From contig JAQULF010000003.1 in assembly GCA_028718745.1 (NCBI GenBank), forward strand, positions 160-64,159: a stretch of 64,000 nucleotides of DNA, in the 5' to 3' direction. Of this stretch, positions 8,816 to 44,910 are shown in pieces. The stretch's first letter is position 1. Every line of letters starts with the position of its first letter. The notes under the pieces are model-generated. The model searched no databases. It worked only from the letters and a program-made list of their open reading frames with translations, and was not told where the DNA came from. The translations under genes and the position numbers were made by a program. Origin of the DNA: Patescibacteria group bacterium (lineage in GTDB: Bacteria; Patescibacteriota; JACPGU01).

Positions 8816-10015
8816 TTAGACTTTTATTTTTACAAACTTCCTCTTCCCCACCTGCACAATCATCCCATCATGAATCCCCAGAACTTCTTTCGAATCTTCT
8901 ATTCTCAAATCGTCAATCCTTACCGCACCTTGTTCAACCAATCTTCTGGCTTCGCTTTTGCTAGTGGCTAATTCCAATTTAAAAACTAAATCTACTATAT
9001 TTATATTTTTATCTGAAATCTTTTTTTCTTCCATATCTTGCGGTTTTTCATGCTCTTGGAATTGTTTGTTGAACACTTCGCCGGCTTTTTCGGCTTTATT
9101 ATGATCATAAAATGCCTCGACAACTTCATGGGCCAATTTGAATTTGATATTGCGCGGATTTTCTCCTTTTTTCATAGCATCCGCAAACATTTTTATTCCT
9201 CCGTCCGGAATATCGGTCAAAAGCTCAAGGCCGGGCAAAATCATTCCATCCGTCCAGCTCATTACCTTGCCAAACATTTCCTCGGGTGAATCAGAAAGCG
9301 CAATAATGTTTCCTTCGGTCTTACCCATTTTCTTTCCTGTCGGATCTTCCAGAAGTTTTGTCGTTATTACAAACTTTTCTTTGTTCAGCATTTTTTTCAT
9401 CAAGGTTCTGCCGGCCAACATGTTGAACATCTGATCATTGCCACCAATTTCACCATCAACATCCATGGTGACAGAATCGTAAGCCTGAAAAACCGGATAT
9501 ACAAATTCATGAAGATAAATTTCTTTTCCTTGCTTGATCCTTTCCTGAAACATATCCCGCTCCAACAATCTTGAAACTGTAAAATGAGACATTAACTCCA
9601 ACATGTCTACCGGCTTTAATTTATTGGTCCATTTCTCGTTATGCAAAAAACGAATATTCGTTTTTTTAAAATCCAAAATCCGGCCGATTAGCTTTTTATA
9701 ATCCTTGGCATTTTCCAAAACCTGTTTTCGGGTTAATTTGACCCTGGTGGCCGTTTTATCCGTTGGATCACCTATTTGGGCGGTAAAATCCCCAATCAAA
9801 ACGATAACTTTGTGTCCGAGATCTTGAAATTCTTTTAACTTTCGCAAAGGAATGGAGTGCCCAATATGAATATCTCCCGTCGGATCAATCCCCATATATA
9901 TGGTTAGTTTTTTCCCAGATCTTAATTTCTCCTCCAAAAACTCTCGGGTGGGAAATATATTTTCCACTCCCCTATTTAATAAATGCTGAATTTTCGCCTC
10001 ATCAATTTTTGCCAT
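8816..10015 (-). CDS. tyrS: Tyrosine--tRNA ligase
   Basis: HIGH motif GIDPTGDIHIGH, KMSKS-like KMGKT, C-terminal S4 domain (RRLVEQGAVRIDD). Confidence 0.9.
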   Translation of the reverse strand: MAKIDEAKIQHLLNRGVENIFPTREFLEEKLRSGKKLTIYMGIDPTGDIHIGHSIPLRKLKEFQDLGHKVIVLIGDFTAQIGDPTDKTATRVKLTRKQVLENAKDYKKLIGRILDFKKTNIRFLHNEKWTNKLKPVDMLELMSHFTVSRLLERDMFQERIKQGKEIYLHEFVYPVFQAYDSVTMDVDGEIGGNDQMFNMLAGRTLMKKMLNKEKFVITTKLLEDPTGKKMGKTEGNIIALSDSPEEMFGKVMSWTDGMILPGLELLTDIPDGGIKMFADAMKKGENPRNIKFKLAHEVVEAFYDHNKAEKAGEVFNKQFQEHEKPQDMEEKKISDKNINIVDLVFKLELATSKSEARRLVEQGAVRIDDLRIEDSKEVLGIHDGMIVQVGKRKFVKIKV

Positions 10016-10090
10016 AAAAATAGTTATTGGTATCTAGAAGTATAATACAATGAAGAACATTTTTATTCAACAAAAATAAATCTCTCGGCT

Positions 10091-10118
10091 TTGACATTTG
10101 AAATTTGACATTTGAGAT
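10091..10118 (+). promoter_or_regulatory. Tandem 14-bp direct repeat TTGACATTTGA(A/G)AT x2 upstream of PBP1A
   Basis: ttgacatttgaaat / ttgacatttgagat at 10091-10118; the motif recurs in the GT4/PEGA divergent region (20602-20657). Confidence 0.4.
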
Positions 10119-10129
10119 TTCTATCATAC

Positions 10130-10192: not shown

Positions 10193-12790
10193 ATGTATAT
10201 TCCTTCAAAAAAATCCCGTCTTTTTAAACGAAGAAATAATATGGTTTCCGGAGAACACTATAGTTTTTCATCTTCGAGTAGTTCCGGTCCCTTGGGAAGA
10301 TATTCACCCGAAACCAGAAGGAAAATTTTAAAATATCTTCTCTATGGAGCGGGAATTTTTGTATTTCTTATCATTACCCTTTTTGTCTGGTACTCTCGCG
10401 ACCTGCCCAATCCGTATAAAATTAATGGCCGAGATATTGCTCAATCGACCCAGATTCTCGATCGCAACGGCAAACTACTCTACGACATTCATGGCGAAGA
10501 AAACCGAACTTTGATGAAAATCGACGATATTCCCGAGAATATAAAAAAGGCTACGGTCGCCATAGAGGATCAGGATTTTTACAAGCACATGGGGATTGAT
10601 CTGAAAGGTGTAGCCAGAGCTTTCTTTTACGACATCGTCCATCGCAACGCTACTCAAGGAGGATCCACGATTACCCAGCAATTTGTCAAAAATGCGCTTT
10701 TGACTTCAGACAAGAGTGTAGCTCGAAAAATCAAAGAGCTTATTTTGTCTATTGAAATTGAAAAAGTCTATTCCAAAAATGAAATTCTGGGAATGTATCT
10801 GAATGAAATTCCTTACGGTAATAATGCCTATGGAATCTATTCCGCTTCCAAAACCTATTTTGGCAAAGAACCAAAAGATCTGACATTAGCCGAATCGGCA
10901 CTTCTAGCTTCTGTTCCGCAAGCACCAACCTATTACAATCCTTACGGATCTAATACCGATGTTTTGATGGCCCGAAAAGATTATACACTGGATAAAATGG
11001 TTGAATTGGGATTGACCACCAAGGCGGATGCTGATGTTGCGAAGAAAGAAGAAATAAAATTTGTCCAGCAAGATCAAGGAATTTTGGCGCCTCATTTTGT
11101 TATGTATATCAAAGATCTGTTGGCGCAAAAATACGGCGAAGATCGGCTTCAGCAAGGCGGATTGATTGTAACCACTTCCCTTGATTTGGACAAGCAAAAG
11201 ATCGCTGAAGATGTCCTAACCAACAGCAAAGCAAATTTGAAAGCTAGCGGCGCTTCAAACGCGTCTCTGGTTTCAATGGATCCAAAAACCGGTGAGATAT
11301 TGGCAATGGTGGGAAGCGTTGATTATTTTGATACTGCTAATGATGGCAATGTTAATGTGTCCATTCGTCCTCGGCAACCGGGGTCGAGCCTAAAACCTTT
11401 TATTTATGGTTTGGCTTTTAATAATCTGGGCTATGCTCCTTCCACTATGATGATGGATGTACAAACCGATTTCGGCCAAGGCTACAAGCCGGGTAACTAT
11501 GATGGCCAATTCCGCGGCCCAGTTTCTATTCGAAAATCTCTCGGCAATTCATTGAATATTCCGGCTGTCGAAACATTAGCCATGGTGGGCGTAAAAAACG
11601 CCACTGACTTTGCTCAAAAAATGGGGTTGACTACTTTGACAGATCCGGATCGTTACGGATTGTCTCTGGTTCTTGGAGGCGGAGAAGTAAAACTTTTGGA
11701 AGAAGTAAATGCTTACTCTGTCCTTGCCAATGGTGGTATAAAACACGATATTCATTCAATTTTAAAAATTACCGATAGCTCCGGAAAAGTTTTGGAAGAA
11801 TACAAATCCAGTGAAGATAAGGGTACAAGAATTCTTGACGAAAATCCGAATTACTTGGTAACCAATATCTTATCCGATGATAATGCCCGTGCCGAAATAT
11901 TCGGTATGGGCGGAGTTCTGACGCTTCCGGGACGGCCTGTCGCCGCAAAAACCGGAACGACTGATGAATATCGCGATGCTTGGACATTTGGCTATACCCC
12001 ATCGGTTGTTACAGGGGTCTGGGCGGGAAACAATAATAATGCCGAAATGAATCATGGATCCGGCGCTATGGTAGCCGCTCCAATTTGGAATAGTTATATG
12101 AAACAAATTCTATCCGGAACACCGGTAGAACAATTTGCCGTTCCATCCGGAATAGTTCATGTTCCGGTGGATGCTTTGACCGGTATGCTGCCGCTTTCTA
12201 ATCTTTCTCCGGAGACAGCTCAAAAATTGCCTACCGCTGACGGAATTTTCTGGAGCAAATTCCAGCCTCAAGCGACAGATAGTGTTCACAAAGTAATAAA
12301 AGTCGTCAAGGGCGGTGATAAATTAGCCGATTCAGATTGCCCGGACAGCATGACTGAAGAAAAAGTATTTTTGGAATTTCATTCAATTAACCCTTCCAAT
12401 CCGAATTGGGAAAATGCGGTTGTGGCTTGGGCCAAAGCAGCCGGGCATAACAATGTCCCAACCGAAAAAGAAAGCTGTAAAGACGCGGTCAAAGAAAATC
12501 AGCCGACAATTACTATCAACTCCCCTCTTGCCAATGCCGATATCAGCGGAAAATTAACCATCATCATCTCCTATATCGCAAAAAAAGATGTTGATAAAAT
12601 CGAGTATTATATTGATGATGAAAAAATCGCCGAGAAAAAATCCGGCGATCCTACCAATGCCGGAAATAATTTCAATCTTGAAGACTTTGCTCTGCCGGCA
12701 ACTCTTTCCGGAAAAGCTAATATCAAAGTAGTTTTGACCGATAAGCTCGGTTTGAAAGCGACCGATGAGGTCTCGGTGAATATCAAGTAG
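10193..12790 (+). CDS. mrcA: Class A penicillin-binding protein 1A (bifunctional glycosyltransferase/transpeptidase)
   Basis: GT51 motifs (AIEDQDFYKHMGID, GGSTITQQ), transpeptidase SSLKPF (SxxK) and KTGTT (KTG); N-terminal TM anchor; alternative start possible at M17. Confidence 0.85.
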   Translation: MYIPSKKSRLFKRRNNMVSGEHYSFSSSSSSGPLGRYSPETRRKILKYLLYGAGIFVFLIITLFVWYSRDLPNPYKINGRDIAQSTQILDRNGKLLYDIHGEENRTLMKIDDIPENIKKATVAIEDQDFYKHMGIDLKGVARAFFYDIVHRNATQGGSTITQQFVKNALLTSDKSVARKIKELILSIEIEKVYSKNEILGMYLNEIPYGNNAYGIYSASKTYFGKEPKDLTLAESALLASVPQAPTYYNPYGSNTDVLMARKDYTLDKMVELGLTTKADADVAKKEEIKFVQQDQGILAPHFVMYIKDLLAQKYGEDRLQQGGLIVTTSLDLDKQKIAEDVLTNSKANLKASGASNASLVSMDPKTGEILAMVGSVDYFDTANDGNVNVSIRPRQPGSSLKPFIYGLAFNNLGYAPSTMMMDVQTDFGQGYKPGNYDGQFRGPVSIRKSLGNSLNIPAVETLAMVGVKNATDFAQKMGLTTLTDPDRYGLSLVLGGGEVKLLEEVNAYSVLANGGIKHDIHSILKITDSSGKVLEEYKSSEDKGTRILDENPNYLVTNILSDDNARAEIFGMGGVLTLPGRPVAAKTGTTDEYRDAWTFGYTPSVVTGVWAGNNNNAEMNHGSGAMVAAPIWNSYMKQILSGTPVEQFAVPSGIVHVPVDALTGMLPLSNLSPETAQKLPTADGIFWSKFQPQATDSVHKVIKVVKGGDKLADSDCPDSMTEEKVFLEFHSINPSNPNWENAVVAWAKAAGHNNVPTEKESCKDAVKENQPTITINSPLANADISGKLTIIISYIAKKDVDKIEYYIDDEKIAEKKSGDPTNAGNNFNLEDFALPATLSGKANIKVVLTDKLGLKATDEVSVNIK

Positions 12791-12858: not shown

Positions 12859-13716
12859 TCACTTCTTTTTTTTGGTTGTGGCGGTTTTGACGGGAATCTT
12901 CACTTTAACCATAGCCAGAGTGTTGGACCATTCCTGACCGCTCATCGTTCCCATCATGTGCGGCCGTCCATTGGCATTGAGTTTGGGCGAGTTTTTGTCT
13001 GGCACATCTTCGCCATTAATATCATACCTCATGGTACCGCGAAGATATGTGCCCCCTTTTTGAACATCCACAACAGTGAGTTGTGCAATCCGCCCAAAAT
13101 GTCCCAACCTCTCACTTCCCAACCGTTTTATTCCCTTACTGCAATCGCACCGGTTCCCAGCCTTATCGACAGGCCACGATGCCATACTAGCAATACGGAT
13201 ATCACAGGCGATGAACTTGTCGCCGACTTTTACATCGACATCCGGCGGGTAAAGTTTGCAGAGCGGTGCCTCCGTGTTGGCATAAACGCAGAAAAAAATA
13301 TCCGGCGATGTTTCCATTACATAGTAATAAGGTAGATGCCGCATTCCGTTCGGAGATGGAAGCCGCGGATTATCTATGCGGCTGTAAATCGTAACGCTCT
13401 CATTTTCTCCTCCCCAGGTCTTCTGGAAATCCGCCACGATGCCGCCCCTTTTCATAAAAACGAAGGGTGCTTGGCAAACGGTTCCTTCTTTGTGTTCGTA
13501 GTATTGCGAGTATTCGCACAACACCGGCCGCTCAAATTCCTCAAAAAGCGACGGGTATTCCGGTGAGACAGCGACCATCTCCCCATTCACTTCTTCGAAG
13601 TTAAGCTGGCCGATAGCGACCGGCGGATGAAGCGTTTTGGCGGTCGAGACCGCCGGGATTGCAAACAGAGCCGACAGCACTGCCACAACGATCAAGCTGA
13701 TCTTTGCGTTTTTCAT
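12859..13716 (-). CDS. Secreted Cys-rich hypothetical protein (start re-called at MKNAKISL...)
   Basis: Signal peptide MKNAKISLIVVAVLSALFAIPAVSTA preceded by GGAGG RBS; 8 Cys; lies in GC-rich (~50%) island; the tracked ORF start at 13863 is probably an upstream extension. Confidence 0.45.
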   Translation of the reverse strand: MKNAKISLIVVAVLSALFAIPAVSTAKTLHPPVAIGQLNFEEVNGEMVAVSPEYPSLFEEFERPVLCEYSQYYEHKEGTVCQAPFVFMKRGGIVADFQKTWGGENESVTIYSRIDNPRLPSPNGMRHLPYYYVMETSPDIFFCVYANTEAPLCKLYPPDVDVKVGDKFIACDIRIASMASWPVDKAGNRCDCSKGIKRLGSERLGHFGRIAQLTVVDVQKGGTYLRGTMRYDINGEDVPDKNSPKLNANGRPHMMGTMSGQEWSNTLAMVKVKIPVKTATTKKKK

Positions 13717-23648: not shown

Positions 23649-25277
23649 ATGTTTTCTTTATTTGCAAAAAAAGCAATACCGGTTAAAGAAAGAATCACCA
23701 AAAAACCGCATCCGGTTGTTCTAATTATTTTGGACGGTTATGGTATCTCTCCTATTCGCGAAGGAAATGCAGTCTGGAATGCCAATACACCCAATCTGGA
23801 TTCTTACGAAAAAAAATACCCAAAAGCGCTTTTGCATACGGCTGGAAATGAAGTTGGCCTTCCTTATGGTGAATTTGGCAATAGCGAAGTTGGACATTTA
23901 AATATTGGTTCGGGTCGAGTAGTTTATCAGCCATTGCTGCGAGTTTCCAATGAAATTGAAGCTGGAAATTTATATAACAACGAGGCGATGGACGGCATCA
24001 AAAAACATCTTAAAAAAACCGGGGGTGCATTGCATCTGATGGGACTTCTCTCCCCCGGCGGCGTTCATTCTCATATTGAACATCTTTTTGCAATTCTTGA
24101 TTGGTGCAAAGATAACAAAATCAAGAAAATATTTATTCATGTTTTTACCGACGGAAGGGATGCCCCGCAAAAATCCGGCGCGGAATACATAGAAGATTTA
24201 ATTAAAAAAATTGAAGAGCTAAATATCAATGCTCAAATAGCCTCTCTCTCCGGACGATATTTTGCTATGGATAGAGATCGCCACTGGGATAGATTAAAAA
24301 AGGCTTATCAGGCCTGGATTGGAACGGGGAAAAATAGAAACGATAATCCTTCCGATGCAATCACTGAAAGCTACAAAGAGAAAAAAACGGATGAATTTCT
24401 AGATCCCGTTGTTATAACCGATAAAGATGGCAAACCACTGGGGCCAATATCTGGCGGGAATGCTTTATTAATGTTCAACCTTCGTCCGGACAGATCTCGC
24501 CAAACCTTAATGTCTTTTGTAAGCAACTCATTTGGCAGTTTCAAAACTAAAAAAATTGACGATCTTTTTGTGGCAACCTTGACCGAATATGATCCAAAGC
24601 TAAAAGCAAAAGTGGTATTCCCGGAAAAAGATATTAAAAATCCCTTGGGCGAGATATTATCAAAAAAAGGTCTGAAACAATTTCATATTGCCGAAACAGA
24701 AAAATACGCGCATGTCACTTATTTCTTTAACGGCGGCCGAGAAAAACCTTTCAAGGGAGAAACCAGAGTTATAGTCCCTTCGCCTTCTGTTCCAACTTAT
24801 GATAAAAAACCGGAAATGAGCTGTGAAAAAATTGCTATCAGAGTTTTGGAAGAATTGGAAAAAGGAAAAGAAGATTTTTTCGTAATTAATTTTGCCAATG
24901 CCGATATGGTCGGACATACCGGAAATTATAAAGCGATTCTAAAAGCCGTGGAAGCGGTTGATCAATGTGTTGGAAAAATAGTCGAAAAAACTTTGATCCT
25001 TGGCGGAGCAGCAATAATCACAGCCGATCATGGCAATGCCGAAGAAACTATTAATTCTCAATCGAGCGAAAAAGACACGGAACATAATATCTATCCGGCT
25101 CCTTTTATTGTCATCAGCCACGATTTGGAAAATAAAAAAGAAACCTTGAACTTCAAAGAAGCTATTTCCGAACCGATTGGTTCGCTAGCTGACATAGCAC
25201 CAACTATTTTGGATTTAATGGGAATAGAACAACCTACGGATATGACGGGGATAAGTTTGTTGAACAGCTTGAAATAA
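23649..25277 (+). CDS. gpmI: 2,3-bisphosphoglycerate-independent phosphoglycerate mutase
   Basis: HPVVLIILDGYG, GNSEVGHLNIGSGR, LSPGGVHSH, FTDGRD - canonical iPGM motifs. Confidence 0.9.
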   Translation: MFSLFAKKAIPVKERITKKPHPVVLIILDGYGISPIREGNAVWNANTPNLDSYEKKYPKALLHTAGNEVGLPYGEFGNSEVGHLNIGSGRVVYQPLLRVSNEIEAGNLYNNEAMDGIKKHLKKTGGALHLMGLLSPGGVHSHIEHLFAILDWCKDNKIKKIFIHVFTDGRDAPQKSGAEYIEDLIKKIEELNINAQIASLSGRYFAMDRDRHWDRLKKAYQAWIGTGKNRNDNPSDAITESYKEKKTDEFLDPVVITDKDGKPLGPISGGNALLMFNLRPDRSRQTLMSFVSNSFGSFKTKKIDDLFVATLTEYDPKLKAKVVFPEKDIKNPLGEILSKKGLKQFHIAETEKYAHVTYFFNGGREKPFKGETRVIVPSPSVPTYDKKPEMSCEKIAIRVLEELEKGKEDFFVINFANADMVGHTGNYKAILKAVEAVDQCVGKIVEKTLILGGAAIITADHGNAEETINSQSSEKDTEHNIYPAPFIVISHDLENKKETLNFKEAISEPIGSLADIAPTILDLMGIEQPTDMTGISLLNSLK

Positions 25278-25389
25278 AAGATAAAATATAAAAAATAAAA
25301 AACAAGAATTAAAAACTTAAAAATAGATTTATTTTTGCATATTTAAGTATTTGTTTTTTATCTTTTATTTTTAATTTTTTATATTTCTA

Positions 25390-27609: not shown

Positions 27610-27935
27610 ACCCCCTCCCATTTTTTTTCTTCTTCTTTTCTTTTTTTCTCGATTCGGCGGATCCTATTTCCCCTTCTGCGCGCCGCTCTTATTTCTTCAT
27701 TTGTCAGAAGACGCCCCTTCCTTTTCACTTCTTCTTCCGGATACAGGCTTTTCGGTAAAAAAGATGCTCTTTCCACCGGAACCATTCTTCTCCATGAGCG
27801 CTGGTATCTGTTTATTTCTGCCGCTCTCATTTCCCCTGCTTTTGCAAGTGCAGAATTTCTCTTCAAATCACTCACCTCCTTTGTTAAATGACATTTTTTC
27901 TTATTCTATCAAAAAAATATATTTATATCAAATCT

Positions 27936-27997
27936 TTGGAATGACGAACGATAGTTCGTTAATTTGAAAATGACAGACTATCGTCTGTCACTCCAAA
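27936..27997. repeat. REPIN-like paired-hairpin palindromic element, copy 2 (intergenic, downstream of recJ)
   Basis: tttggaatGACGAACgataGTTCGTtaa ... aaTGACAGACtatcGTCTGTCActccaaa. Confidence 0.7.
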
Positions 27998-28049
27998 CTC
28001 AAATAAAAAAACATTTGCTATTTGACATTATAATTTAAAACTTAGAAAT

Positions 28050-29621: not shown

Positions 29622-29845
29622 TTTTTCATAATCCGGTGAGAAAAATTCCTCCGCTTCTTTTTTATTTTTGATATCGCGATTATAAATAAGCTGAATTATA
29701 ACATCGTCCCAATCCTTGAATTGCTTTTTAAGTTCTTCATCAAATGTTTTAGCAACTTTCTAACTTTTATGCATAGCTATATAATAACAAAAAAACAAGA
29801 ATTAATAACTCTTGCTTTTTACCAAAAAAAATGTTTTGGCTTAAT

Positions 29846-29900
29846 TACTTACTACTTACTACTTACTACTTACTACTTACTACTTACTATTTACTACTTC
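29846..29900. repeat. Heptanucleotide satellite (TACTTAC)x6 + 2 degenerate units abutting the ftsQ stop codon
   Basis: tacttac x6 (29846-29887), then tatttac tacttc; on the mRNA strand this is (GTAAGTA)n beginning with the TAG stop. Confidence 0.8.
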
Positions 29901-30790
29901 ACTATCACTCTTCCATTCACCGACAAGATCACATATTCCGTAATCTTTTCTCCTTGTTGAAAAACTTTGGATAACTTATCCAATTGCTCAACTACATCAG
30001 CTCCGGTATCAAAAACTATATAGAAGCCGCTATTTACATGCGCTTTCAATTCGAAGGTTGTTTGGTTGATGCTGTAGATTGTAATCCCAAGGCCAAATCT
30101 TTTTTTCAAACTCTCATCTACTACATTAACGAAATCGATAAATTCTTTGGTAACAATGCGATCTCCAACTTTTACAGGTAATCCCGCCTGATCAATTATG
30201 GTGGGCATTTTTAAATCTTCCTTCATGTCAGACATAACATAACCATTATTGTCTAGAAGATATTTGCTTTCCCCCACTTGCCAAATAATAGTACTGGGTT
30301 TTTCTTGTATTTTGATTTTTAATTTCGATGGAAACACTTTGTAAACTCTGACATCATCTATTCTTTTGTAATAATCCAGCAATACATTTTTTACCTGGCT
30401 GGTATTAAGCAAAAAAAGATTTTTATTGTTGATGTTTCTTTCTTCAAGAAACTTAACTATATCTCCCTCCAATAATATCTGATTATTTACCACGACTATC
30501 TTTTTTATCTTAAAAACTTCCGAGAAAAGCAAAACATAAGCGATACCGGCTAAGCAAAGTAAAACAAAAAGTATTTTCCAGTATGGAATGTAAAGTTTTT
30601 TTTCTGGTCGGCCAAAAACCTCGTTGGCATAATGTTTGGGAACGCTTTTACCTTTGCGAGATTTGAGATGAAAAGATAATCCAAATCTTTTTTGTTTGGC
30701 ACCCTTGTAAATATCTACTCGCTGTTTTCTGGTAATCTGGTTTTTGTTTCTCCGTCGGAACATTTTATTATCCCTCCAAAAACTTTTCAC
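29894..30790 (-). CDS. ftsQ: Cell division protein FtsQ/DivIB-like (TM + POTRA)
   Basis: Basic N-tail, single TM (ILFVLLCLAGIAYVLLF), POTRA-like region, position at end of dcw cluster after murC. Confidence 0.6.
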   Translation of the reverse strand: MKSFWRDNKMFRRRNKNQITRKQRVDIYKGAKQKRFGLSFHLKSRKGKSVPKHYANEVFGRPEKKLYIPYWKILFVLLCLAGIAYVLLFSEVFKIKKIVVVNNQILLEGDIVKFLEERNINNKNLFLLNTSQVKNVLLDYYKRIDDVRVYKVFPSKLKIKIQEKPSTIIWQVGESKYLLDNNGYVMSDMKEDLKMPTIIDQAGLPVKVGDRIVTKEFIDFVNVVDESLKKRFGLGITIYSINQTTFELKAHVNSGFYIVFDTGADVVEQLDKLSKVFQQGEKITEYVILSVNGRVIVK

Positions 30791-32234: not shown

Positions 32235-32310
32235 AGATAAAAAATTAGTTTTAAAACCAATAGCTATTTTAGCATAAAAAGGGCTTATCTCAAAACTTAA
32301 ATCTTTCCCA

Positions 32311-32345
32311 TACTTACTACTTACTACTTACTACTTACTACTTAC
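32311..32345. repeat. Heptanucleotide satellite (TACTTAC)x5 overlapping the murG stop and last codons
   Basis: tacttac x5 at 32311-32345; encodes ...SK* of MurG then continues into the murG-murC spacer. Confidence 0.8.
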
Positions 32346-33480
32346 TACCCGCTACCATTCCCAATATCTCCTCGGCTATAATATGCGCGCTATTTTCCGG
32401 AAAAATGTTTTTCATATTTTTTACCATAGAGTCTCTCGTTTTCTTGTCTTTCATCAAAAAATCTATTTCTTCATATAGTTTTTCAGCGGTTAAAAGATTT
32501 TCGTCCAATACTGATGCGATTTCATTTTTCTGTAGAAATTTTGCATTCTTGTTTTGATGATCGGCAGCGGCAGATGATAAGGGAATCAAAATCGCCGGTT
32601 TTTTTAAAGCAACAATCTCTGCAATTGAATTTGCCCCGGCGCGACTTACAACCAAATCGGTATTATTCAAAAAATCTTTTAGCTCTTCTTTCGCGTAACC
32701 AAACTCCAAATATCTTTCTCGTTCCGGCTTGCTTAATAATGAACGCTTATCCCTGAAGTATTCTTCATTATTTTTTCCGGTTTGGTGAATAAGATTGTAG
32801 TTGGCAAGAATTTTATTTAACAATTCATCGATCAATTCATTAATTCTTCCCGAACCTTGGCTTCCTCCCAAAACAAAAATAATTTTTTTTGTTTTATCTA
32901 AACCGTATTGTTGAAAAAAGTTTTTCTTATCGCTTTTTATATTCAGAAGTTCTTTTCTTACCGGATTTCCGCTAAAATAAGTTTTCTTTATAGAAATTCC
33001 CTTGTAGATATCAACCGGAAAACCAAGATAGACTTTCTTAGCAAATGGCAAAAGTATTTTATTGGATAATCCTATTACAGAATCCGATTCATGAATAACA
33101 AAAGGTATTCGCAATAATGCAGCTGCCAAGCAAAAAGGTACAGTGACAAACCCTCCCTTGGCAAAAATAATATCTGGTCGATTAAATAACAAGATAAAAA
33201 AAGATTGAACAAATCCAATCAACATCAAAAAAATATCGCTGAAGTTTTTTATGTCAAAATATCTTCGAAGCTTTCCCGTAAAAATGCCCTTATATCTCAA
33301 GCCGTATGTCCCGATCAATTCTTGCTCAATGCCATGTCGGCGGCCTATATACAAAAAATCAACGCTAACATTTTTAGCTTTGGATATTTTTACCAGCTCA
33401 TCAATGATCGCAAGATTGGGAGCCACATGACCGGCCGTCCCACCACCTACGAAGATTATTTTAAAATGTTTTTCTTCCAT
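32338..33480 (-). CDS. murG: UDP-N-acetylglucosamine--N-acetylmuramyl-(pentapeptide) pyrophosphoryl-undecaprenol N-acetylglucosamine transferase
   Basis: FVGGGTAGHVAPNLAI (G-loop), GT28 C-terminal GGSQGS. Confidence 0.9.
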   Translation of the reverse strand: MEEKHFKIIFVGGGTAGHVAPNLAIIDELVKISKAKNVSVDFLYIGRRHGIEQELIGTYGLRYKGIFTGKLRRYFDIKNFSDIFLMLIGFVQSFFILLFNRPDIIFAKGGFVTVPFCLAAALLRIPFVIHESDSVIGLSNKILLPFAKKVYLGFPVDIYKGISIKKTYFSGNPVRKELLNIKSDKKNFFQQYGLDKTKKIIFVLGGSQGSGRINELIDELLNKILANYNLIHQTGKNNEEYFRDKRSLLSKPERERYLEFGYAKEELKDFLNNTDLVVSRAGANSIAEIVALKKPAILIPLSSAAADHQNKNAKFLQKNEIASVLDENLLTAEKLYEEIDFLMKDKKTRDSMVKNMKNIFPENSAHIIAEEILGMVAGSK

Positions 33481-34607: not shown

Positions 34608-34708
34608 AAAGTTGTCATCCTCGAGCTTCTGTTGTACTCAACAGAAAATCAAGGATCTAATTTTTTATTTGTATTATTCGTATATTCGTACCGATTTGTA
34701 ATTCGTAG

Positions 34709-36064
34709 TTATTTCAACTTGTTAACCTCTTTGATAAACCTCTTACCTCGATCAAACTCATTGATAAATAAATTGAAACTTGCTCCTCCGGGAGAGAGTA
34801 GTATCGTATCTCCTTTTTTACTTAAAGAATAAGCTTTTTTAACCGCTTCTTTCATATTTTCAACTTCAAAAATATTTTCCGCCTTATAATCAAAACTAAA
34901 TTTCTCTTTTATTTTATCAGAAAATGATCCCGGAAGCAGCACTGTTTTTAGATTGCGCGTCTCAATTTTTTCTGCCAACTCATCTACATCCCCCCCAAAC
35001 ATTTTGTCCACTCCGCCCAAAATCAAAATCGGTTTTTTGAATTCTTCCAAAGCAAAGTTAACTGCGGAAGGATGAGTAGCGGTTGTATCATTTATAAAAG
35101 TTCTACCTTTAATTTTTGCGACTGACTCTTTCCTACCTTCTAGTCCCTTAAAATCTCTAATCACTTTTTTGATATCGGCATTTTCTATCCCAAATATTTT
35201 GGCGAATTTAAACAAAGCGTCATCATTCGTTCCGTCAAAAAATACTTTTTTGCTTTTTGCGTCCTTAATGATCTTCTGTAGTTTCTTGTTAGTAATTAAA
35301 ATATCATTCTTTTTTTGGAATCGATAAATATCTCTTTTTGCTTCAATATAGTTTTCGTATGAAAAATGGAAAGAAATATGTTCCGGATAGATATTTGTAA
35401 TCACTGCGACATCCGGACTTCGCTTTGCATATCTCGCGTGGTGAAGTTGAGCCGATGATAATTCCAAAACCACGATTGATTTCTCATCCGCTTCTTCCAA
35501 ACAATCAAAAACTGATTTGCGTATATTTCCTCCAAAAAAAACTTTGTTAAAAATTGTTGGTTCGGTGGCTTTGTCCCCGAACCTTACCAAAAGTCCGCCT
35601 TTTTTATCAATCCGACTTTTTATCAAATCAAAAATCATCGCTGTCACGGTCGACTTGCCTTTGGTCCCTGTAATTCCAATTTTAAATGAAGGTGAATTTT
35701 CAAAAAATATCCCAATATCATTTTCTACCTTTACTCCGGCTTTCTGCGCAACGCGTAAAAAATCGCTATCGTCTTTTACTCCCGGATTGCGAATAACAAA
35801 ATTGGAATTGGTAAAATATTTTTCCAAATGCTCGCCCAATCGAAATGTAATTTTTTTACCCCGCCCTGGCGGGGTTAACTTTGCAACCGAGCTTTTTAAT
35901 TCCTTTTCACTTTTTGTATCAGTAACTAAAACCTTGGCGCCTAGTTTTGCAAAAAACTTCGCCGTTCCAACTCCCCCTCCATGCAAACCCAAACCCCAGA
36001 CCAAAACTTTTTTGCCTTTATACTTTTTTTCTAGGTTTTTTGTAATATCATTTTTTGATTTCAT
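34709..36064 (-). CDS. murD: UDP-N-acetylmuramoylalanine--D-glutamate ligase
   Basis: KVLVWGLGLHGGGVGTAKFFAKLGAKVLVTD Rossmann N-terminus, GTKGKST P-loop; contains GC-palindrome-encoded KLTPPGRG insertion. Confidence 0.9.
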   Translation of the reverse strand: MKSKNDITKNLEKKYKGKKVLVWGLGLHGGGVGTAKFFAKLGAKVLVTDTKSEKELKSSVAKLTPPGRGKKITFRLGEHLEKYFTNSNFVIRNPGVKDDSDFLRVAQKAGVKVENDIGIFFENSPSFKIGITGTKGKSTVTAMIFDLIKSRIDKKGGLLVRFGDKATEPTIFNKVFFGGNIRKSVFDCLEEADEKSIVVLELSSAQLHHARYAKRSPDVAVITNIYPEHISFHFSYENYIEAKRDIYRFQKKNDILITNKKLQKIIKDAKSKKVFFDGTNDDALFKFAKIFGIENADIKKVIRDFKGLEGRKESVAKIKGRTFINDTTATHPSAVNFALEEFKKPILILGGVDKMFGGDVDELAEKIETRNLKTVLLPGSFSDKIKEKFSFDYKAENIFEVENMKEAVKKAYSLSKKGDTILLSPGGASFNLFINEFDRGKRFIKEVNKLK

Positions 36065-36124: not shown

Positions 36125-36652
36125 TTATAACTTATATTTTTCTTTTATCATTTTTGCAACTTTCTTTGCGGAAATCTTAGTATTATCTATATTTAAGTTT
36201 TTAACAAAAGGAATCGGTAAAAATAAATTAAATTCTTTCAAACAACTATTTAGTTTTTTGGCTGTTCTTATTTTGCCATGATATTTTCTGGATTCCCCAA
36301 CAACTCTTTTGCATAACTCTTTTTTATCGCTATAAAGCTGGGCGAAACAAATTTTCCCATTATATTTTTTAACCTTTCTTATAACATCCTTCACAAATTT
36401 GTCATCATGATCGCGCACATAACAAAAAGTAAAAATCAGATTAACATTGTTCTTAGCTGCTAACTCTATCATCTCTAATCGAAGTCGCGAGGAAATTTCA
36501 AAAAAGTTTTTTTCGCCAAATTTAAGTACAGAGGTTATTAGATCTACTGTTAGGTGATTATGAAAAACCTTATAACCAGTAAGCTTTGCTAACTCCTTTG
36601 CGACTGTTAATTTTCCCGTTGCCGGCGGTCCATAAATAAAAACTAAGTTCAT
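36125..36652 (-). CDS. P-loop kinase-like protein (AAA_33/CPT-like)
   Basis: Walker A IYGPPATGKLTVA at N-terminus; ~175 aa; inserted within the dcw cluster. Confidence 0.4.
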   Translation of the reverse strand: MNLVFIYGPPATGKLTVAKELAKLTGYKVFHNHLTVDLITSVLKFGEKNFFEISSRLRLEMIELAAKNNVNLIFTFCYVRDHDDKFVKDVIRKVKKYNGKICFAQLYSDKKELCKRVVGESRKYHGKIRTAKKLNSCLKEFNLFLPIPFVKNLNIDNTKISAKKVAKMIKEKYKL

Positions 36653-36684
36653 AAATTTTATTTTAATTCTTTTTTCATTTTATT

Positions 36685-36756
36685 TGACAAACTATCGTTT
36701 GTCACTCCAAAATTCATGATTATCGCATTTGGAATGACGGACGACAGTCCGTTATC
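36685..36756. repeat. REPIN-like paired-hairpin palindromic element, copy 3 (intergenic, immediately downstream of RAYT gene)
   Basis: tGACAAACtatcGTTTGTCActccaaa - 16-nt spacer - tttggaatGACGGACgacaGTCCGTtatc. Confidence 0.7.
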
Positions 36757-36767
36757 TTTTCTTAATT

Positions 36768-37394
36768 TTAATCTTCTATATTTATATCATTCGCGGGATA
36801 ATAATAAAAGCAATCAAACAAAAAATCTTTTCCTCTTTTTGTTAGCCAATGCTTGTAACTGCAAAAATTAAAATTTTCCAATTCCTCAAAATTTTTTACC
36901 AAACCGTGCTTTATTGGATTTTGGTGAATATAATTGAATATCTTAAAGAAATCTCGTTCGCCTCTTATGCAATAATCCCAATACTGATAAAATACTTTTC
37001 TTCCCTCACAATCGTCCATCTTATTTAAAACTCTCGCAATCGAAGAATTCAAACGATTTGCGAAATAGGAAATCTTTTTTTGTTTGACAGCCTTACGGCT
37101 GTCATTCCAAGGATTTTCTAAAAAATCTAGCATACCACTGTTTGTATTTGGAGTGACACCCGTGAGGGTGTCGTCCTCAATAGAGTTTAACTTTAGCAAC
37201 AAATGATAATGGTTTTTCATTATCGCAAAAGCATAAAGTGAAATTCCTAATTCTTTAATTAAGTTGTTAATTATGTTTAAAATTATTCCCTCTCTTCCGG
37301 AAAAATAATTTTTCTTTTCAAAACACCTTGTTGTTAAAAAATAAACTTCATTTTCTAATTCTAAATGAAACGGCCTGTGCTTATTTGATTTCAT
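36768..37394 (-). CDS. IS200/IS605-family Y1 (HUH) transposase, REP-associated tyrosine transposase (RAYT)-like
   Basis: HUH motif NHYHLLL; C-terminal catalytic-Tyr motif NYIHQNPIKHGLV (YIxxNPVkaGLV of Y1_Tnp); HUH-to-Tyr spacing inflated by ~33 aa that are encoded by a REPIN-like element (37084-37176). Confidence 0.7.
   Translation of the reverse strand: MKSNKHRPFHLELENEVYFLTTRCFEKKNYFSGREGIILNIINNLIKELGISLYAFAIMKNHYHLLLKLNSIEDDTLTGVTPNTNSGMLDFLENPWNDSRKAVKQKKISYFANRLNSSIARVLNKMDDCEGRKVFYQYWDYCIRGERDFFKIFNYIHQNPIKHGLVKNFEELENFNFCSYKHWLTKRGKDFLFDCFYYYPANDINIED
37084..37176. repeat. REPIN-like paired-hairpin element, copy 4 (variant with compensatory stem changes), in-frame inside the RAYT gene
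   Basis: ttGACAGCCttacGGCTGTCattccaagg ... tttggagtGACACCCgtgaGGGTGTCgtc; conserved flanks TTGACAG...GTCATTCCAA and TTTGGAGTGAC...GTC. Confidence 0.55.
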
Positions 37395-37395
37395 T

Positions 37396-37755
37396 TTATT
37401 TCCTAAAATCTATCCCACCTGCTTTTTTATTGGTATGCCCGACGCGCTTAACATCCTCAACCGGAAATCTTGTTTCGTATTCTTCCAAAACATCATCGAT
37501 AGCCTTCTGGGAATCGACTCCGCAAATGTGGGCTATTTTTAAAGCAAGAAAAGTAATATCACCAATAAAGTTTTCTACTTCACCCATATTTTCTTTTATT
37601 AACTTTTCCTGTTCTTTAGCGTCCACCCATTTAATTATATTCCAAAATTCTCCAATCTCCTCGCTCATATTAAGCAGGAGATCCTTTACTTCGCTGACAT
37701 TCCCCCATCCCCTTTCCTTATTAAATTTTTCGATTTTGTCCTGTGTTTTTTTCAT
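37396..37755 (-). CDS. MazG-like nucleotide pyrophosphohydrolase domain protein
   Basis: EEIGEFW...DAKEQE...GDITFLALKIAH pattern typical of small MazG/NTP-PPase all-alpha proteins. Confidence 0.55.
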   Translation of the reverse strand: MKKTQDKIEKFNKERGWGNVSEVKDLLLNMSEEIGEFWNIIKWVDAKEQEKLIKENMGEVENFIGDITFLALKIAHICGVDSQKAIDDVLEEYETRFPVEDVKRVGHTNKKAGGIDFRK

Positions 37756-38431: not shown

Positions 38432-38548
38432 AGTATAAAAAATTAAAAATAAAATATAAAAAATAAATATTTAAATACATAAAAACAAAAATATTTTTAA
38501 ATTTTTAATTTGTGTTTTTTATTTTTGATATTTTATTTTTTTATATTC

Positions 38549-39598: not shown

Positions 39599-40798
39599 TT
39601 ATTTTTTTATAACTTCCACTATTTTCTCCATATGCATTCCATGCGATCCTTTTACTAAAATAATATCTCCGCTTTTTATATTTTCTTTGACTGAACTGAT
39701 TGCTGATTGAAAATCCGGAAACCAAAATACTTTTCCTTCCATTTTCTTTTCCGCTTCTTGAAAAATGAATTTGGATTCTTCGCCAACCGCAAAAACTAGA
39801 TCAACCTTACCAACCAGCATCTTTCCAATTTCCCGATGAAATTCTTGTGATTTTTCACCTAGCTCTAGCATATCGCCAAGTACCGCGATCTTTCTTTTCT
39901 TATCGCCCAAATTATTCAATGTCTGAATTGCGGCTTTCATGCTCTCCGGGTTTGCATTGTAACTATCATCTATAATCATTGAATCATTTATTCCTTTAAT
40001 CATATTTAATCTTCCTTTTTCCATCTGAAATCCTTCCGCTGCCCAAATACAATCTTCCAGGCTCATTTCACAAATCAATCCGCAGGCAATTCCCGCCAAA
40101 ACAGAATAAATCAGATGTTCGCCAATTATATTCAGATGAATTTTTTTGGATTCTTTTTTATAATGAACAGTAAAATCGATTCCATGAATATCGGATTTAA
40201 TTCCGTCAGCATATAAATCGGCTTTCTTGTTTAATCCAAAGAAAAAGGTCTTTCCTTTATTTCTCTTTTCCATCTCTCTAACATTGGGATCGTCGTAATT
40301 GAGAATCGCCCAACCATTACTATCTAACGCTTCAATCAACATTCCTTTTTCTTGCGCGACATTTTCTAGTGAATGAAAAAATTCAAGGTGCGAACTGGCA
40401 ACACGGGTGATAACAGCGATTTTTGGTTTTATAAATGAAGTCAGGTATTTAATATCGCCAAACCGATCTGCCCCCATTTCCAAAATAGCTTTCTCAAAAT
40501 GAGTTTTTTGAAACACTGATTTTAAAAAACCCAATGAGATATTTTTTATCCAGCCCAAAGGAAACTTTTCAACCTTCAGTCCCAAAAGAGCCGTCGGAAC
40601 GCCAACTTCTTCATTCTGGTTCGCCCTGGTCTTACCAACAGAAAATTTGGAAGATAAAACCTGATAAATCGCTTCTTTGGTGGAGGTTTTTCCAATACTT
40701 CCCGTAATAGCAATGATATCAATTTTATTTCTTTTCAAATATCTGGTCGCAAAACTTTTTAAAATCAATTGATATGCTTTTTTTAATCTTTTCTTCAT
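39599..40798 (-). CDS. murF: UDP-N-acetylmuramoyl-tripeptide--D-alanyl-D-alanine ligase (start re-called at ATG MKKRLKK; track ORF extends to a TTG at 40834)
   Basis: IAITGSIGKTSTKEAI P-loop, Mur ligase domains; TGGTATAAT-like -10 element just upstream of the ATG. Confidence 0.85.
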   Translation of the reverse strand: MKKRLKKAYQLILKSFATRYLKRNKIDIIAITGSIGKTSTKEAIYQVLSSKFSVGKTRANQNEEVGVPTALLGLKVEKFPLGWIKNISLGFLKSVFQKTHFEKAILEMGADRFGDIKYLTSFIKPKIAVITRVASSHLEFFHSLENVAQEKGMLIEALDSNGWAILNYDDPNVREMEKRNKGKTFFFGLNKKADLYADGIKSDIHGIDFTVHYKKESKKIHLNIIGEHLIYSVLAGIACGLICEMSLEDCIWAAEGFQMEKGRLNMIKGINDSMIIDDSYNANPESMKAAIQTLNNLGDKKRKIAVLGDMLELGEKSQEFHREIGKMLVGKVDLVFAVGEESKFIFQEAEKKMEGKVFWFPDFQSAISSVKENIKSGDIILVKGSHGMHMEKIVEVIKK

Positions 40799-40861
40799 AT
40801 CTATATTATACCAAGAAAATGAACTATTCGCCAATTTCCGGGCGCGGGCACCGCGCCCCTA

Positions 40862-40896
40862 CTTAATACTTAATACTTACTACTTACTACTTAACC
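40862..40896. repeat. Heptanucleotide satellite (CTTAATA)x2-(CTTACTA)x2-CTTAACC abutting the ftsI stop
   Basis: Same unit family (phase-shifted TACTTAC) as at 29846 and 32311. Confidence 0.75.
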
Positions 40897-42665
40897 AAAC
40901 CCTTCTCTCTTTTTATCTGCTCTTCCTTCCAAACATCATCCGGTGGTATCTGGTAATAATTCAAAATATTCGCCGCTAATTCTCCGAATATAGGAGCTGC
41001 CGTAGATTCCGCCCAGATTACATCGCGAGGTACATTAATTCTGGTTACAATCACAAAAAGCGGATTATCGGTCGGGCCAAAACCAATAAAGGAACCGATA
41101 AATTTATCTGTTTCGTATCCTCGAAAATCTTTCTTGGGAATCTGCGCCGTACCGGTTTTACCACCAATTCTGTAGCCCTTTACTCGAGCTTGTTTCCCAT
41201 GGCCTCTCTCGGCAACACTAATCATCATATCCGTTATTTCATGGGCTGACTTTTCGCTTAAAACTCTGCCGATCACTTGCGGCTCTACTTTTTCTACTTT
41301 ACCATTTTTATCAATATATTCTTTTACAATATGTGGTTTTACCATCAACCCCCCATTTGCCACCGCGCCCATAGATTGCGCCAACTGAACCTCGGTTGTG
41401 TTAATACCCTGGCCAAAAGACATTGTCGCCAAATCAACCGGTATAGCATCTTCTTGAGGCTTCACGGCGCCCGGAGATTCACCGTCAATTTCAATCCCCG
41501 TTCTTTTGCCAAAACCAAAATTATTTATATATTTATAAAAATTATCCGTACCGGTTTTTTGCGTCATCCAAACCATTCCCACATTATCAGAGTTTTCCAA
41601 AACTTGAGTCATAGTCTCATAACCATAGGGTCTCTTGACACTATTCCAAATAACCGCATCCTGAACCTGAACTTTGGCATCAAAATATTCTCCCGTATCC
41701 GGCGTTACCGCTCCGCTATCGATACCGGCTGTCATCGCGATTAATTTAAAAACCGATCCCGGTTCATAAGCATCGGCTGTCGCCATACATTGGAAAACGC
41801 TATAATCTTTAACTTCCGTATATTTTGCCGGTTCATAAGTTGGAAATTCGGCTAGAGCCAGGATTCCGCCGCTTTTGGGGTCCATCACCACGATTGAGCC
41901 GCTATCCGCTTTATGCTGTTCAACCGCTCTGGCAATAATATCTTCTGCGTAATACTGAATTACATGGTCAATCGTAAGAACTACATCTTTACCATTTTTA
42001 GGTAGCACAACTTTACTATCAGCCACTGTTATCTGGCGACCCAAAATATCTCTTTCGGAAATCAATTTGCCCTGCTCTCCCTTGAGAACATCATTCAAAT
42101 ATCCCTCAACTCCATATTGTCCCTCTCCTTGATTATCGACAAAACCAAGAAACTTTGCCCCCATACTCCCTTCCGGGTAATCCCTGTAGGTTTCGGGAAT
42201 CAAAACAACTCCAGGCAGCTTCAAATCCTCAATCTTTTTGCTAATCTCATCGCTTAGCTTCCTTTTTAAGGGCGGAATATAAACTTTTTTTTCAGAGAGT
42301 AATTGATTGATTTCTCCGGCTGGCATGTCAATTATCGGACCCAGCTTACTAGCTAAGTCAGCCGCATCTTCCACTTGATTAGGAATTATCATTACCGACC
42401 AGAGAGTTTTATTAGTTACTAGGGGAAATTTGGTATCGCTATATATATCGGTAACAAATATCTCCCCTCTGGCCGGCATTATCTTTTCTTCTTTGTATCT
42501 TTGATTGTAGGCTAGCTCTTGGTAGTGGGAATATTTGATAATTTGTTTTTCAAAAAGACGAACTCCGATTATCCCAAAAAGCCCCATCACAACAATAAAA
42601 ACGATAAATATTCTCGCTTTTATATTCCCCTGCTCTTCAATTCTTATATTATTACTCCCCCACAT
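40887..42665 (-). CDS. ftsI: Class B penicillin-binding protein (FtsI/PBP2-type transpeptidase)
   Basis: N-terminal TM, SxxK (GSVFKL), SDN (ENSDNVG), KTGT; dcw synteny. Confidence 0.85.
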   Translation of the reverse strand: MWGSNNIRIEEQGNIKARIFIVFIVVMGLFGIIGVRLFEKQIIKYSHYQELAYNQRYKEEKIMPARGEIFVTDIYSDTKFPLVTNKTLWSVMIIPNQVEDAADLASKLGPIIDMPAGEINQLLSEKKVYIPPLKRKLSDEISKKIEDLKLPGVVLIPETYRDYPEGSMGAKFLGFVDNQGEGQYGVEGYLNDVLKGEQGKLISERDILGRQITVADSKVVLPKNGKDVVLTIDHVIQYYAEDIIARAVEQHKADSGSIVVMDPKSGGILALAEFPTYEPAKYTEVKDYSVFQCMATADAYEPGSVFKLIAMTAGIDSGAVTPDTGEYFDAKVQVQDAVIWNSVKRPYGYETMTQVLENSDNVGMVWMTQKTGTDNFYKYINNFGFGKRTGIEIDGESPGAVKPQEDAIPVDLATMSFGQGINTTEVQLAQSMGAVANGGLMVKPHIVKEYIDKNGKVEKVEPQVIGRVLSEKSAHEITDMMISVAERGHGKQARVKGYRIGGKTGTAQIPKKDFRGYETDKFIGSFIGFGPTDNPLFVIVTRINVPRDVIWAESTAAPIFGELAANILNYYQIPPDDVWKEEQIKREKGLVK

Positions 42666-43149: not shown

Positions 43150-43164
43150 TTTTGTTTTTTATTT

Positions 43165-43235
43165 TAGACAGACTGTCGTCTGTCATTCCAAAATTCAGGA
43201 TTAGCATTTGGAGTGACGGACGATAGTCCGTTATG
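43165..43235. repeat. REPIN-like paired-hairpin palindromic element, copy 5 (ftsL-rsmH spacer)
   Basis: taGACAGACtgtcGTCTGTCattccaaa - 12-nt spacer - tttggagtGACGGACgataGTCCGTtatg. Confidence 0.7.
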
Positions 43236-43248
43236 TTTTTAAAATTTC

Positions 43249-44869: not shown

Positions 44870-44910
44870 GTTATCCACTTTTCCCCACTCTTATCCACAA
44901 TTCCCCACTC
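44870..44910 (-). promoter_or_regulatory. Candidate MraZ operator: four GTGG(G/A) repeats at 10-bp periodicity upstream of mraZ
   Basis: Minus strand GTGGGGAATT GTGGATAAGA GTGGGGAAAA GTGGATAA; matches the known MraZ-box architecture (direct GTGGG repeats spaced one helical turn apart). Confidence 0.5.

Follow-up and report, generated by a model that had tools for sequence, protein, structure and literature searches.

Why do three genes of a single dcw cluster in an uncultured Patescibacteria (CPR) bacterium end inside the same heptanucleotide repeat, and does the repeat have a purpose there? The window, by which we mean the whole 64,000-nucleotide stretch of DNA analysed, represents almost the entire 64.3-kb contig. 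Tandem Repeats Finder (TRF) detected three period-7 arrays in it, with the unit TACTTAC on the plus strand, which reads GUAAGUA on the minus-strand mRNA. A first-pass annotation had placed these arrays at the 3' ends of ftsQ, murG and ftsI. It saw in them both an all-frame stop barrier and a slippage-prone tract, whose copy number could modulate the promoter or RBS spacing of the following gene.

Results

Three heptanucleotide arrays in the dcw cluster

Pfam confirmed the minus-strand dcw cluster. In its first part, mraZ, mraW, a small ORF, ftsI, a Mur ligase gene (murE/F type, hereafter murF) and mraY follow each other. Then come rluA, an unknown ORF, an IS200-like Y1 gene and a gene for an AAA protein, and finally murD, ftsW, murG, murC and ftsQ, with recJ next. 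The genes that end in arrays, all on the minus strand, are ftsQ (29894-30790), murG (32338-33480) and ftsI (40887-42665). Their next genes by Pfam are recJ, murC and murF, respectively, as annotated before.

Array A (29846-29904, minus strand) holds 8.3 copies of GTAAGTA on the mRNA strand (TRF, period 7, 94% matches; also by pattern search). It starts in the last ftsQ codons and reaches 48 nt beyond the stop. Array B (32311-32348, minus strand) is a perfect run of 5.4 copies (TRF, 100% matches), the first 1.5 of which code for the end of MurG (...G-S-K) and its stop. Array C (40860-40894, minus strand; TRF, 5.0 copies, 92%) has five units, two to three of GTAAGTA and then two of GTATTAA, seen on the plus strand as mixed TACTTAA and TACTTAC, and begins within the last ftsI codons. 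All three start within the last one to three codons of the upstream gene.

The arrays are real, as first described. The 14-mer TACTTACTACTTAC, allowing up to two mismatches, has 15 matches in the window against 0.24 expected from 100 shuffles, none of which reached 15. Fourteen of these matches lie inside arrays A-C, and at the same tolerance the opposite strand of the window has none. By pattern search, the three GTAAGTA arrays lie within 11 kb and no other is present in the 64 kb. Each has at least three head-to-tail 7-nt copies of high identity, as is characteristic of heptanucleotide SSRs. The arrays also resemble long SSRs (LSSRs) in being longer and more frequent than composition predicts, in their non-coding placement, and in their absence from ORF interiors in the stop-carrying orientation. 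No flanking sequence is common to arrays A, B and C, and therefore they are not parts of a larger mobile unit. Palindromes of the REP/BIME or MITE type are ruled out, as the arrays have neither an inverted partner nor common flanks. Rfam gave no match at the family gathering score and none overlapping the arrays.

On the mRNA, the GUAAGUA tract is a C-free, purine-rich 3'-UTR spacer that appears to be unstructured, with arrays A-C unpaired in the predicted folds, centroid structures included. Purine richness of the sense strand is strong across this region. Exact-protein look-up retrieved two short Logan contigs, both from SRR22315506, one of which (L002) is identical in sequence through array C, and the other (L001) breaks inside the perfect array B. 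The same look-up with RecJ gave no matches.

Stop codons within the repeat unit

In all three genes, the ORF ends in AAG TAG with an in-frame TAA directly behind, in the first array units. The TAG stops lie at 29894-29896 (ftsQ), 32338-32340 (murG) and 40887-40889 (ftsI), all on the minus strand. The Lys codon and the stop are, as had been noted, part of the array. The presence of UAG and UAA in all frames is likewise confirmed: in (GTAAGTA)n, each frame is closed within 15 nt, by V-S-S-K-stop, an immediate TAA, or K-stop. Read in the reverse orientation, GTAAGTA is stop-free in all frames. The FtsQ C-terminus ...GRVIVK is the same in relatives, and therefore array A begins at the native ftsQ stop. 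The FtsI C-terminus ...GLVK is also shared with relatives, and the MurG tail ...AGSK is encoded by array-like sequence.

Genes in the window stop with TAA (26), TAG (14) or TGA (6). The in-frame TAG-TAA of the three array genes is similar to the tandem (back-up) stops of other systems. Unlike these, it is not a general habit here, since none of the 11 remaining TAG-ending ORFs in the window has a second stop. In the array genes, the second stop simply belongs to the repeat unit. The sole tRNA in the window is Leu-CAA. Recoding or suppression of TAG is ruled out by the stop usage, the lack of other back-up stops and the absence of a suppressor tRNA from the window, and the one in-frame TAG, at recJ codon 5, is too little to indicate it.

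This TAG (29762-29760, in recJ 29760-29774, minus strand) stands where three relatives have a conserved Trp (TGG). The gene starts with MHKS*KVAKTFDEEL in the window and with MNKKWSVAKSFDEEL in the relatives. Beyond codon 5 the frame is intact and conserved, and the next in-frame start is 51 codons on (ATG 29621). The TAG may have arisen by recent nonsense mutation or through an error in sequencing, or it may be read through.

Spacers, hairpins and promoter-like elements

The true starts of the downstream genes were fixed by comparison with syntenic relatives. Beyond the stop, array A takes up 48 of the 119 nt between ftsQ and recJ (conserved ATG at 29774), array B 27 of the 103 nt between murG and murC, and array C 27 of the 88 nt between ftsI and murF (ATG at 40798). 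The share is 26-40% of each spacer, and not most of it, as had been stated.

The remainder of each spacer contains candidate signals. On the 3' side of array A, RNA folding and alignment by eye point to two hairpins (29789-29839, minus strand), CCAAAAC...UUUUGG and the terminator-like AAAAAGCAAGAGUUAUUAAUUCUUGUUUUUUU. The latter is kept in the relative L125, which has no array. They are followed by an extended -10-like TGTTATTAT and the conserved recJ ATG at 29774-29772 (together 29772-29789, minus strand; sequence and relatives), the ATG 6 nt after TGTTATTAT and both downstream of array A and the terminator. Between murG and murC (ATG 32234), promoter search and relatives suggest a promoter-like TTGAGA-16-TAAAAT with TG extension (32266-32293, minus strand), 17 nt beyond the end of array B. 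Its TGnTAAAAT block is conserved before murC in six relatives, and the predicted folding of this spacer is weaker than in shuffles (z = +1.6). Immediately 3' of array C, a G+C-rich 8-bp hairpin, GGGGCGCGG-UGC-CCGCGCCC (40840-40859, minus strand), is predicted in both MFE and centroid structures. A promoter-like TTGGCG-18-TATAAT with TG extension and the murF ATG (40798-40796) lie within 40796-40834 (minus strand; sequence and relatives), and the 399 aa read from this ATG match the relatives.

The murF ATG, like that of recJ, is 6 nt past an extended -10 (TGnTATTAT or TGGTATAAT; 29772-29789 and 40796-40810, minus strand). Neither gene has a Shine-Dalgarno sequence, and the extended -10 layout is conserved in relatives. 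This suggests that the recJ and murF mRNAs may be leaderless.

The arrays occupy the 3'-untranslated stretch of the upstream gene, and not the downstream promoter-to-RBS interval. They lie upstream of the hairpins, the -35 and the extended -10 elements, and are therefore unable to tune promoter-to-RBS spacing; from their position, gain or loss of units alters the distance to the upstream gene only. This contradicts the proposed effect of copy number on the downstream gene. Position also speaks against a phase-variable contingency locus, as the arrays are not in a 5' coding region, a -35/-10 gap or a promoter-RBS gap. The array itself is ruled out as an intrinsic terminator, given that it is predicted to be unpaired and that the hairpins lie downstream of arrays A and C. 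The three arrays had also been assigned to one operon. They do belong to one dcw gene cluster, but each is followed by promoter-like or terminator-like elements, and therefore a single operon is not established.

The same junctions in relatives

The three junctions were read in six syntenic relatives (L123, L125, L127, L209, L210 and L211), the MurG of which is 61-75% identical. At the murG end, the tracts of L123 and L125 are GTAGTAA-like but degenerate, and code for the protein tail (...GSSR and ...VSSR), and L211 has (GTRTTAA)x4. L209 and L210 have no repeat, with the murC promoter block of L209 directly after the murG stop, and in L127 the junction carries (AATTTTC)n...(GAAAATT)n, two inverted arrays forming a hairpin. 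At the ftsI end, an 8-9-nt unit, GTTATAAR/GTTTATAAA, is present in two (L209), three (L123) or four (L125) copies, followed by GGGG. At the ftsQ end, array A is inserted, by comparison with L125, between the stop and the conserved terminator. No array is found there in L125 and L127, and AATTTTC-type hairpin arrays are found in L123 and L209.

Since the repeats at the same junctions are degenerate, different or absent, the tracts turn over, and the earlier description of a slippage-prone tract stands in the sense of instability on the evolutionary scale. In this lineage, stops are habitually followed by short-period repeats, with neither unit nor length conserved. However, a GTAGTAA-like sequence at the murG end is kept in four lineages with MurG only 69-75% identical. 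This is long-lived for a neutral microsatellite, and counts against near-neutrality.

Inverted arrays of the type (AATTTTC)n...(GAAAATT)n, with stems made of 7-nt repeats, begin at ftsI, murG and ftsQ stops in the relatives (L127 4416-4530 and 11122-11211; L123 13574-13696; L209 about 13536-13653).

The search found no strain with MurG identity above 75%. A metagenome scan with MurG as query was dominated by distant MurG genes of 40-44% identity, with no close relatives among the matches listed. An all-against-all BLAST of the array flanks (120 loci) gave no usable orthologous pairs.

GTAAGTA arrays in other phyla

(TACTTAC)3 is present in at least 120 loci of GTDB species genomes, where by our own arithmetic about 0.3 matches to a random 21-mer are expected. 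The matches listed include Bacteroidota, Cyanobacteria, Saccharibacteria, Daviesbacteria, Yonathbacteria, Elusimicrobia, Firmicutes and Acidobacteriota. Terrimonas ferruginea DSM 30193, Calothrix parasitica NIES-267, Paenibacillus plantarum LMG 31461 and Clostridium boliviensis E-1 are among the carriers that can be cultivated. Each listed array was oriented as GTAAGTA, and long ORFs were called around it. Viral contigs gave 17 arrays with the same tendency.

The placement of these arrays is polar. Among the matches listed, a sense gene lies upstream of 68 arrays; 45 of them start no more than 25 nt from the stop of that gene, and in 16-18 the stop is part of the array. Just 7 of the 45 arrays that face a gene's stop in antisense orientation, among the same matches, come that close. 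In convergent pairs among the matches listed, the array is nearer to the GUAAGUA-sense gene in 22 of 22 cases (two-sided binomial p ~5e-7, own arithmetic), and no listed array lies inside an ORF in sense orientation. A position within 50 bp of a stop or overlapping it, on a fixed strand, is the pattern described by Rehm et al. (2015, PMC4692102); it holds here, and for three of the three arrays in the window. Stops of all three types, TGA included, adjoin arrays. The association with gene ends first noticed in the window is, across phyla, one with sense-strand stops, and it is not random.

The adjacent ORFs appear to be correctly called, with no rival open frame in 38 of 47 and with Pfam domains that reach the C-terminus in all eight tested. 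Genes before GTAAGTA arrays in other phyla include tgt, smpB, and genes for an amidase, an lpdA-type protein and a sulfatase. The saccharibacterial Tgt and the amidase, GatA-like in our own reading, end in array-encoded ...VSSK (...VVSSK, L012 about 6889-6921; ...IVSSK, L048, minus strand of the locus). CPR proteins thus end more than once in residues that derive from an array.

Immediately downstream of several arrays lies either an inverted partner or a hairpin resembling a terminator. A strict hairpin with T-run lies within 90 nt downstream of 6 of the 44 stop-adjacent arrays against a background of 2.7%, a modest enrichment. Of 17 arrays of other heptamers beside stops in the fetched loci, a small sample, 13 likewise carry stops in every sense frame, and ten antisense, stop-free TACTTAC arrays adjoin stops too. 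The 17 arrays of other heptamers are too few to separate stop-richness from purine-richness as the cause of the polarity.

Other repeats in the window

Four copies of a REP/MITE-like element, about 90 nt in length, lie at 6598-6665, 27935-28008, 36670-36762 and 43151-43241. The element consists of the hairpins GACGGACGATAGTCCGTT and GACAGACTnTCGTCTGTC, framed by TTTGGAGTGAC...GTCATTCCAAA, and copies are found after the stop codons of mraW and the IS200-like Y1 transposase-like gene (36768-37394). The latter lies between rluA and murD (36125-37755, minus strand), together with an extra unknown 119-aa ORF and a gene for an AAA/RapZ-like protein. All three are absent in the syntenic L123, L125 and L127, and look like an insertion into the dcw cluster. 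A link of the arrays to the IS200-like gene or to the REP-like palindromes is ruled out, as there is no sequence relation.

The window also has two heptamer palindromes made of A and T alone, (AAATAAA)n...(TTTATTT)n, at 25272-25386 and 38434-38547. They show 87% complementarity to one another and are predicted to form long AT hairpins. They span the distance from a stop (of an iPGM-like gene and of mraY) to the start of the next gene. In the murD-ftsW spacer (34665-34714, minus strand), 8-9-nt repeats of the type TACGAAT(A/T) directly follow the murD stop. Between the divergent genes 8816-10015 (minus strand) and 10193-12790 (plus strand), (TTTGACA) x4.4 at 10090-10120 represents tandem copies of a -35-like hexamer. 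Upstream of mraZ, a 20-nt direct repeat, GAGTGGGGAATTGTGGATAA, occurs twice (44871-44910, minus strand), and homologous repeats precede mraZ in L125 and L127. Its GTGG boxes, spaced by 10 nt, give it the appearance of an MraZ operator. Such a role is ruled out for the arrays, from which the MraZ-box-like repeats differ in sequence, period and place.

Discussion

The tracts belong to the heptanucleotide SSR class, and new are the GTAAGTA unit and the phylum. In the literature searched, we found no description of this unit, of its presence in Patescibacteria, or of its fusion to stop codons. Short tandemly repeated repetitive (STRR) sequences are tandem heptanucleotides scattered in intergenic DNA, with units that differ from GTAAGTA, and we know of no described link between them and stop codons. 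They are cited in PMC4692102 for heterocystous cyanobacteria (Calothrix PCC 7601), and GTAAGTA arrays are found in Calothrix and Rivularia genomes. In many prokaryotes, no class of long SSRs is more abundant than heptamers, for which slippage is the proposed cause (Mrazek, Guo and Shah 2007, as summarised in PMC4679880). As described in that summary, prokaryotic LSSRs are similar to arrays A-C in several ways: they are head-to-tail 7-nt units, longer than chance and mostly intergenic. They are also phylogenetically scattered, one unit tends to dominate a genome, and an origin by slippage has been proposed (PMC4679880).

A parallel in position is given by GGGAATC in Xanthomonas and GGGGAYT in Nostoc, which lie within 50 bp of stops or overlap them, on the coding strand (Rehm et al. 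2015, PMC4692102). These repeats are rarer between divergent genes, sometimes form inverted pairs, differ in length between related species at one junction, and had no function found for them (PMC4692102). Their units are G4-forming and stop-free, with four units preferred (PMC4692102), whereas GTAAGTA is A/T-rich, C-free, unable to form G4, and closes all frames. As the stop-free GGGAATC takes the same stop-adjoining position, stop content is not needed to explain position. A parallel in content is TAACTGA, a 7-nt unit with stops, found as direct repeats in a similar set of phyla, namely in marine Beggiatoaceae, Cyanobacteria and Bacteroidetes (MacGregor 2015, PMC4679880). Its forward-orientation stops limit overlap with ORF ends, its reverse orientation is translatable, and indels between strains come in 7-nt steps (PMC4679880). 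In Beggiatoa, however, most TAACTGA sets are just upstream of start codons (PMC4679880), and GTAAGTA is just after stops. Phase-variable contingency SSRs are, like the arrays, slippage-prone tandem tracts near genes. They differ in place: in surface or virulence genes, they lie within the 5' part of the coding region or separate promoter elements, whereas arrays A-C follow housekeeping genes on the 3' side and precede the next promoter.

We think it probable that the arrays are near-neutral slippage products, tolerated at gene ends where changes in length are invisible to the protein; both slippage as the generating process and near-neutrality are what we infer. Slippage in replication would create the arrays and keep their units homogeneous. 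Their birth site would be the least constrained DNA of the junction, between the stop and the terminator hairpin or the next promoter. An array invading the last codons would add at most a V-S-S-K-type tail of four residues, and gain or loss of units would be silent for the protein. The stop-free opposite orientation would lead to readthrough and a longer protein, and would be purged beside gene ends. The arrays can sit on the stop because the GTAAGTA orientation closes the three frames within 15 nt. All-frame stops together with purging of the reverse would account for stop fusion, polarity, encoded tails and turnover. Purine richness of the sense strand may add to the orientation bias, and if the tract has any effect, it is probably only to keep the terminating ribosome at a distance from the hairpin downstream. 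The stop content is probably permissive, and not the selected purpose, because none of the 11 other TAG-ending ORFs is backed up, relatives do without arrays, and stop-free heptamers are placed alike (PMC4692102). Three arrays of the same unit in 11 kb are not obviously predicted by independent slippage births, and the 22:0 polarity could equally result from positive selection for stops or for a purine-rich transcript.

A stop cassette under selection is the next reading to consider. The arrays would halt readthrough or frame-shifted ribosomes in every frame, and insulate the terminator hairpin and the apparently leaderless gene downstream. We regard this as unlikely, although the in-frame TAG-TAA of three out of three genes, the closure of the frames within 15 nt and the polarity across phyla (strict, at 22:0 in convergent pairs among the matches listed) all agree with it. 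It would also fit the way in which arrays hug all three stop types, TGA included, and the all-frame sense stops of 13 of 17 other stop-adjacent heptamers, small as this sample is. On the other hand, no back-up stop follows the 11 other TAG-ending ORFs of the window, and close relatives lack arrays at the same essential genes (murG in L209 and L210, ftsQ in L125 and L127). One or two units would be enough for a barrier, yet five to eight are present. Moreover, stop-free G-rich heptamers occupy the same coding-strand stop position (PMC4692102), and ten antisense, stop-free TACTTAC arrays adjoin stops as well. Slightly more doubtful still is a broader version, in which (GUAAGUA)n is a recurrent, positively selected 3'-end module, combining a self-renewing stop cassette with an unstructured spacer, from Patescibacteria to Bacteroidota, Cyanobacteria and viruses, and in which polarity reflects function. 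If true, such a module would free readthrough or frame-shifted ribosomes before the terminator hairpin or before the next, often leaderless, gene.

It is rather improbable that the arrays are a cis-regulatory platform, on which GUAAGUA or GTAAGTA units bind a multimeric protein controlling dcw mRNA stability, 3'-end formation or transcription. The confinement of the three copies to one functional gene cluster and the predicted single-stranded, accessible state of the tract would suit such binding. The hypothesis has a precedent in the TAACTGA repeats, for which S1-, Csp- or CsrA-type RNA binders were proposed (PMC4679880). But relatives that share the gene order have not kept the tract at these junctions, and elsewhere GTAAGTA follows unrelated genes (tgt, amidase, smpB, lpdA-type, sulfatase). 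The MraZ-box-like repeats before mraZ differ from it in sequence and have a 10-nt spacing, and no candidate binder emerged. Less credible still is a phase-variation switch, by which unit number would shift the promoter geometry or promoter-to-RBS spacing of recJ, murC or murF and produce heritable variants. Such tracts are by nature slippage-prone, and heptamers in promoters, such as the TTTTGAT repeats of ctxAB, are described as tuning expression elsewhere. The arrays, however, lie upstream of the -35 and extended -10 elements, at ftsQ and ftsI upstream of the hairpins too. Their neighbours are housekeeping genes and not surface or contingency genes, and in L209 the murC promoter block manages without an array. 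Equally remote, in our opinion, is a mobile or horizontally spreading process that left the arrays as footprint or cargo, and one heptamer at many sites and in many phyla. It would be consistent with GTAAGTA in Bacteroidota, Cyanobacteria, CPR, Firmicutes, Acidobacteriota and viruses, with the dominance of one unit at many sites within genomes, and with the IS200-like Y1 transposase gene and REP-like palindromes in the same cluster; horizontal spread was also raised by MacGregor for TAACTGA (PMC4679880). Against it, the three arrays have no common flanks, terminal repeats or target duplications around them, the REP-like elements are unrelated to them in sequence, and the breadth of distribution fits repeated independent origin better than transfer.

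Whichever process formed them, the arrays supply the actual stop and the last residues of essential genes, as for MurG (...GSK) in the window. The value of this finding is mostly practical: the arrays break k-mer assemblies, as exemplified by the Logan contig that ends in the perfect array B, and can mislead gene callers on C-termini. Selected stop cassettes, if true, would be a modest new principle of 3'-end design, and the present evidence does not require such selection. To the question of heptamer dominance and of post-stop placement on the coding strand, this case contributes a new phylum and a unit that is rich in stops and does not form G4. A genome-wide contrast between GTAAGTA, which closes all frames, and GGGAATC, which closes none, could separate tolerance of what is harmless to the protein from an orientation set by transcription or purine loading.
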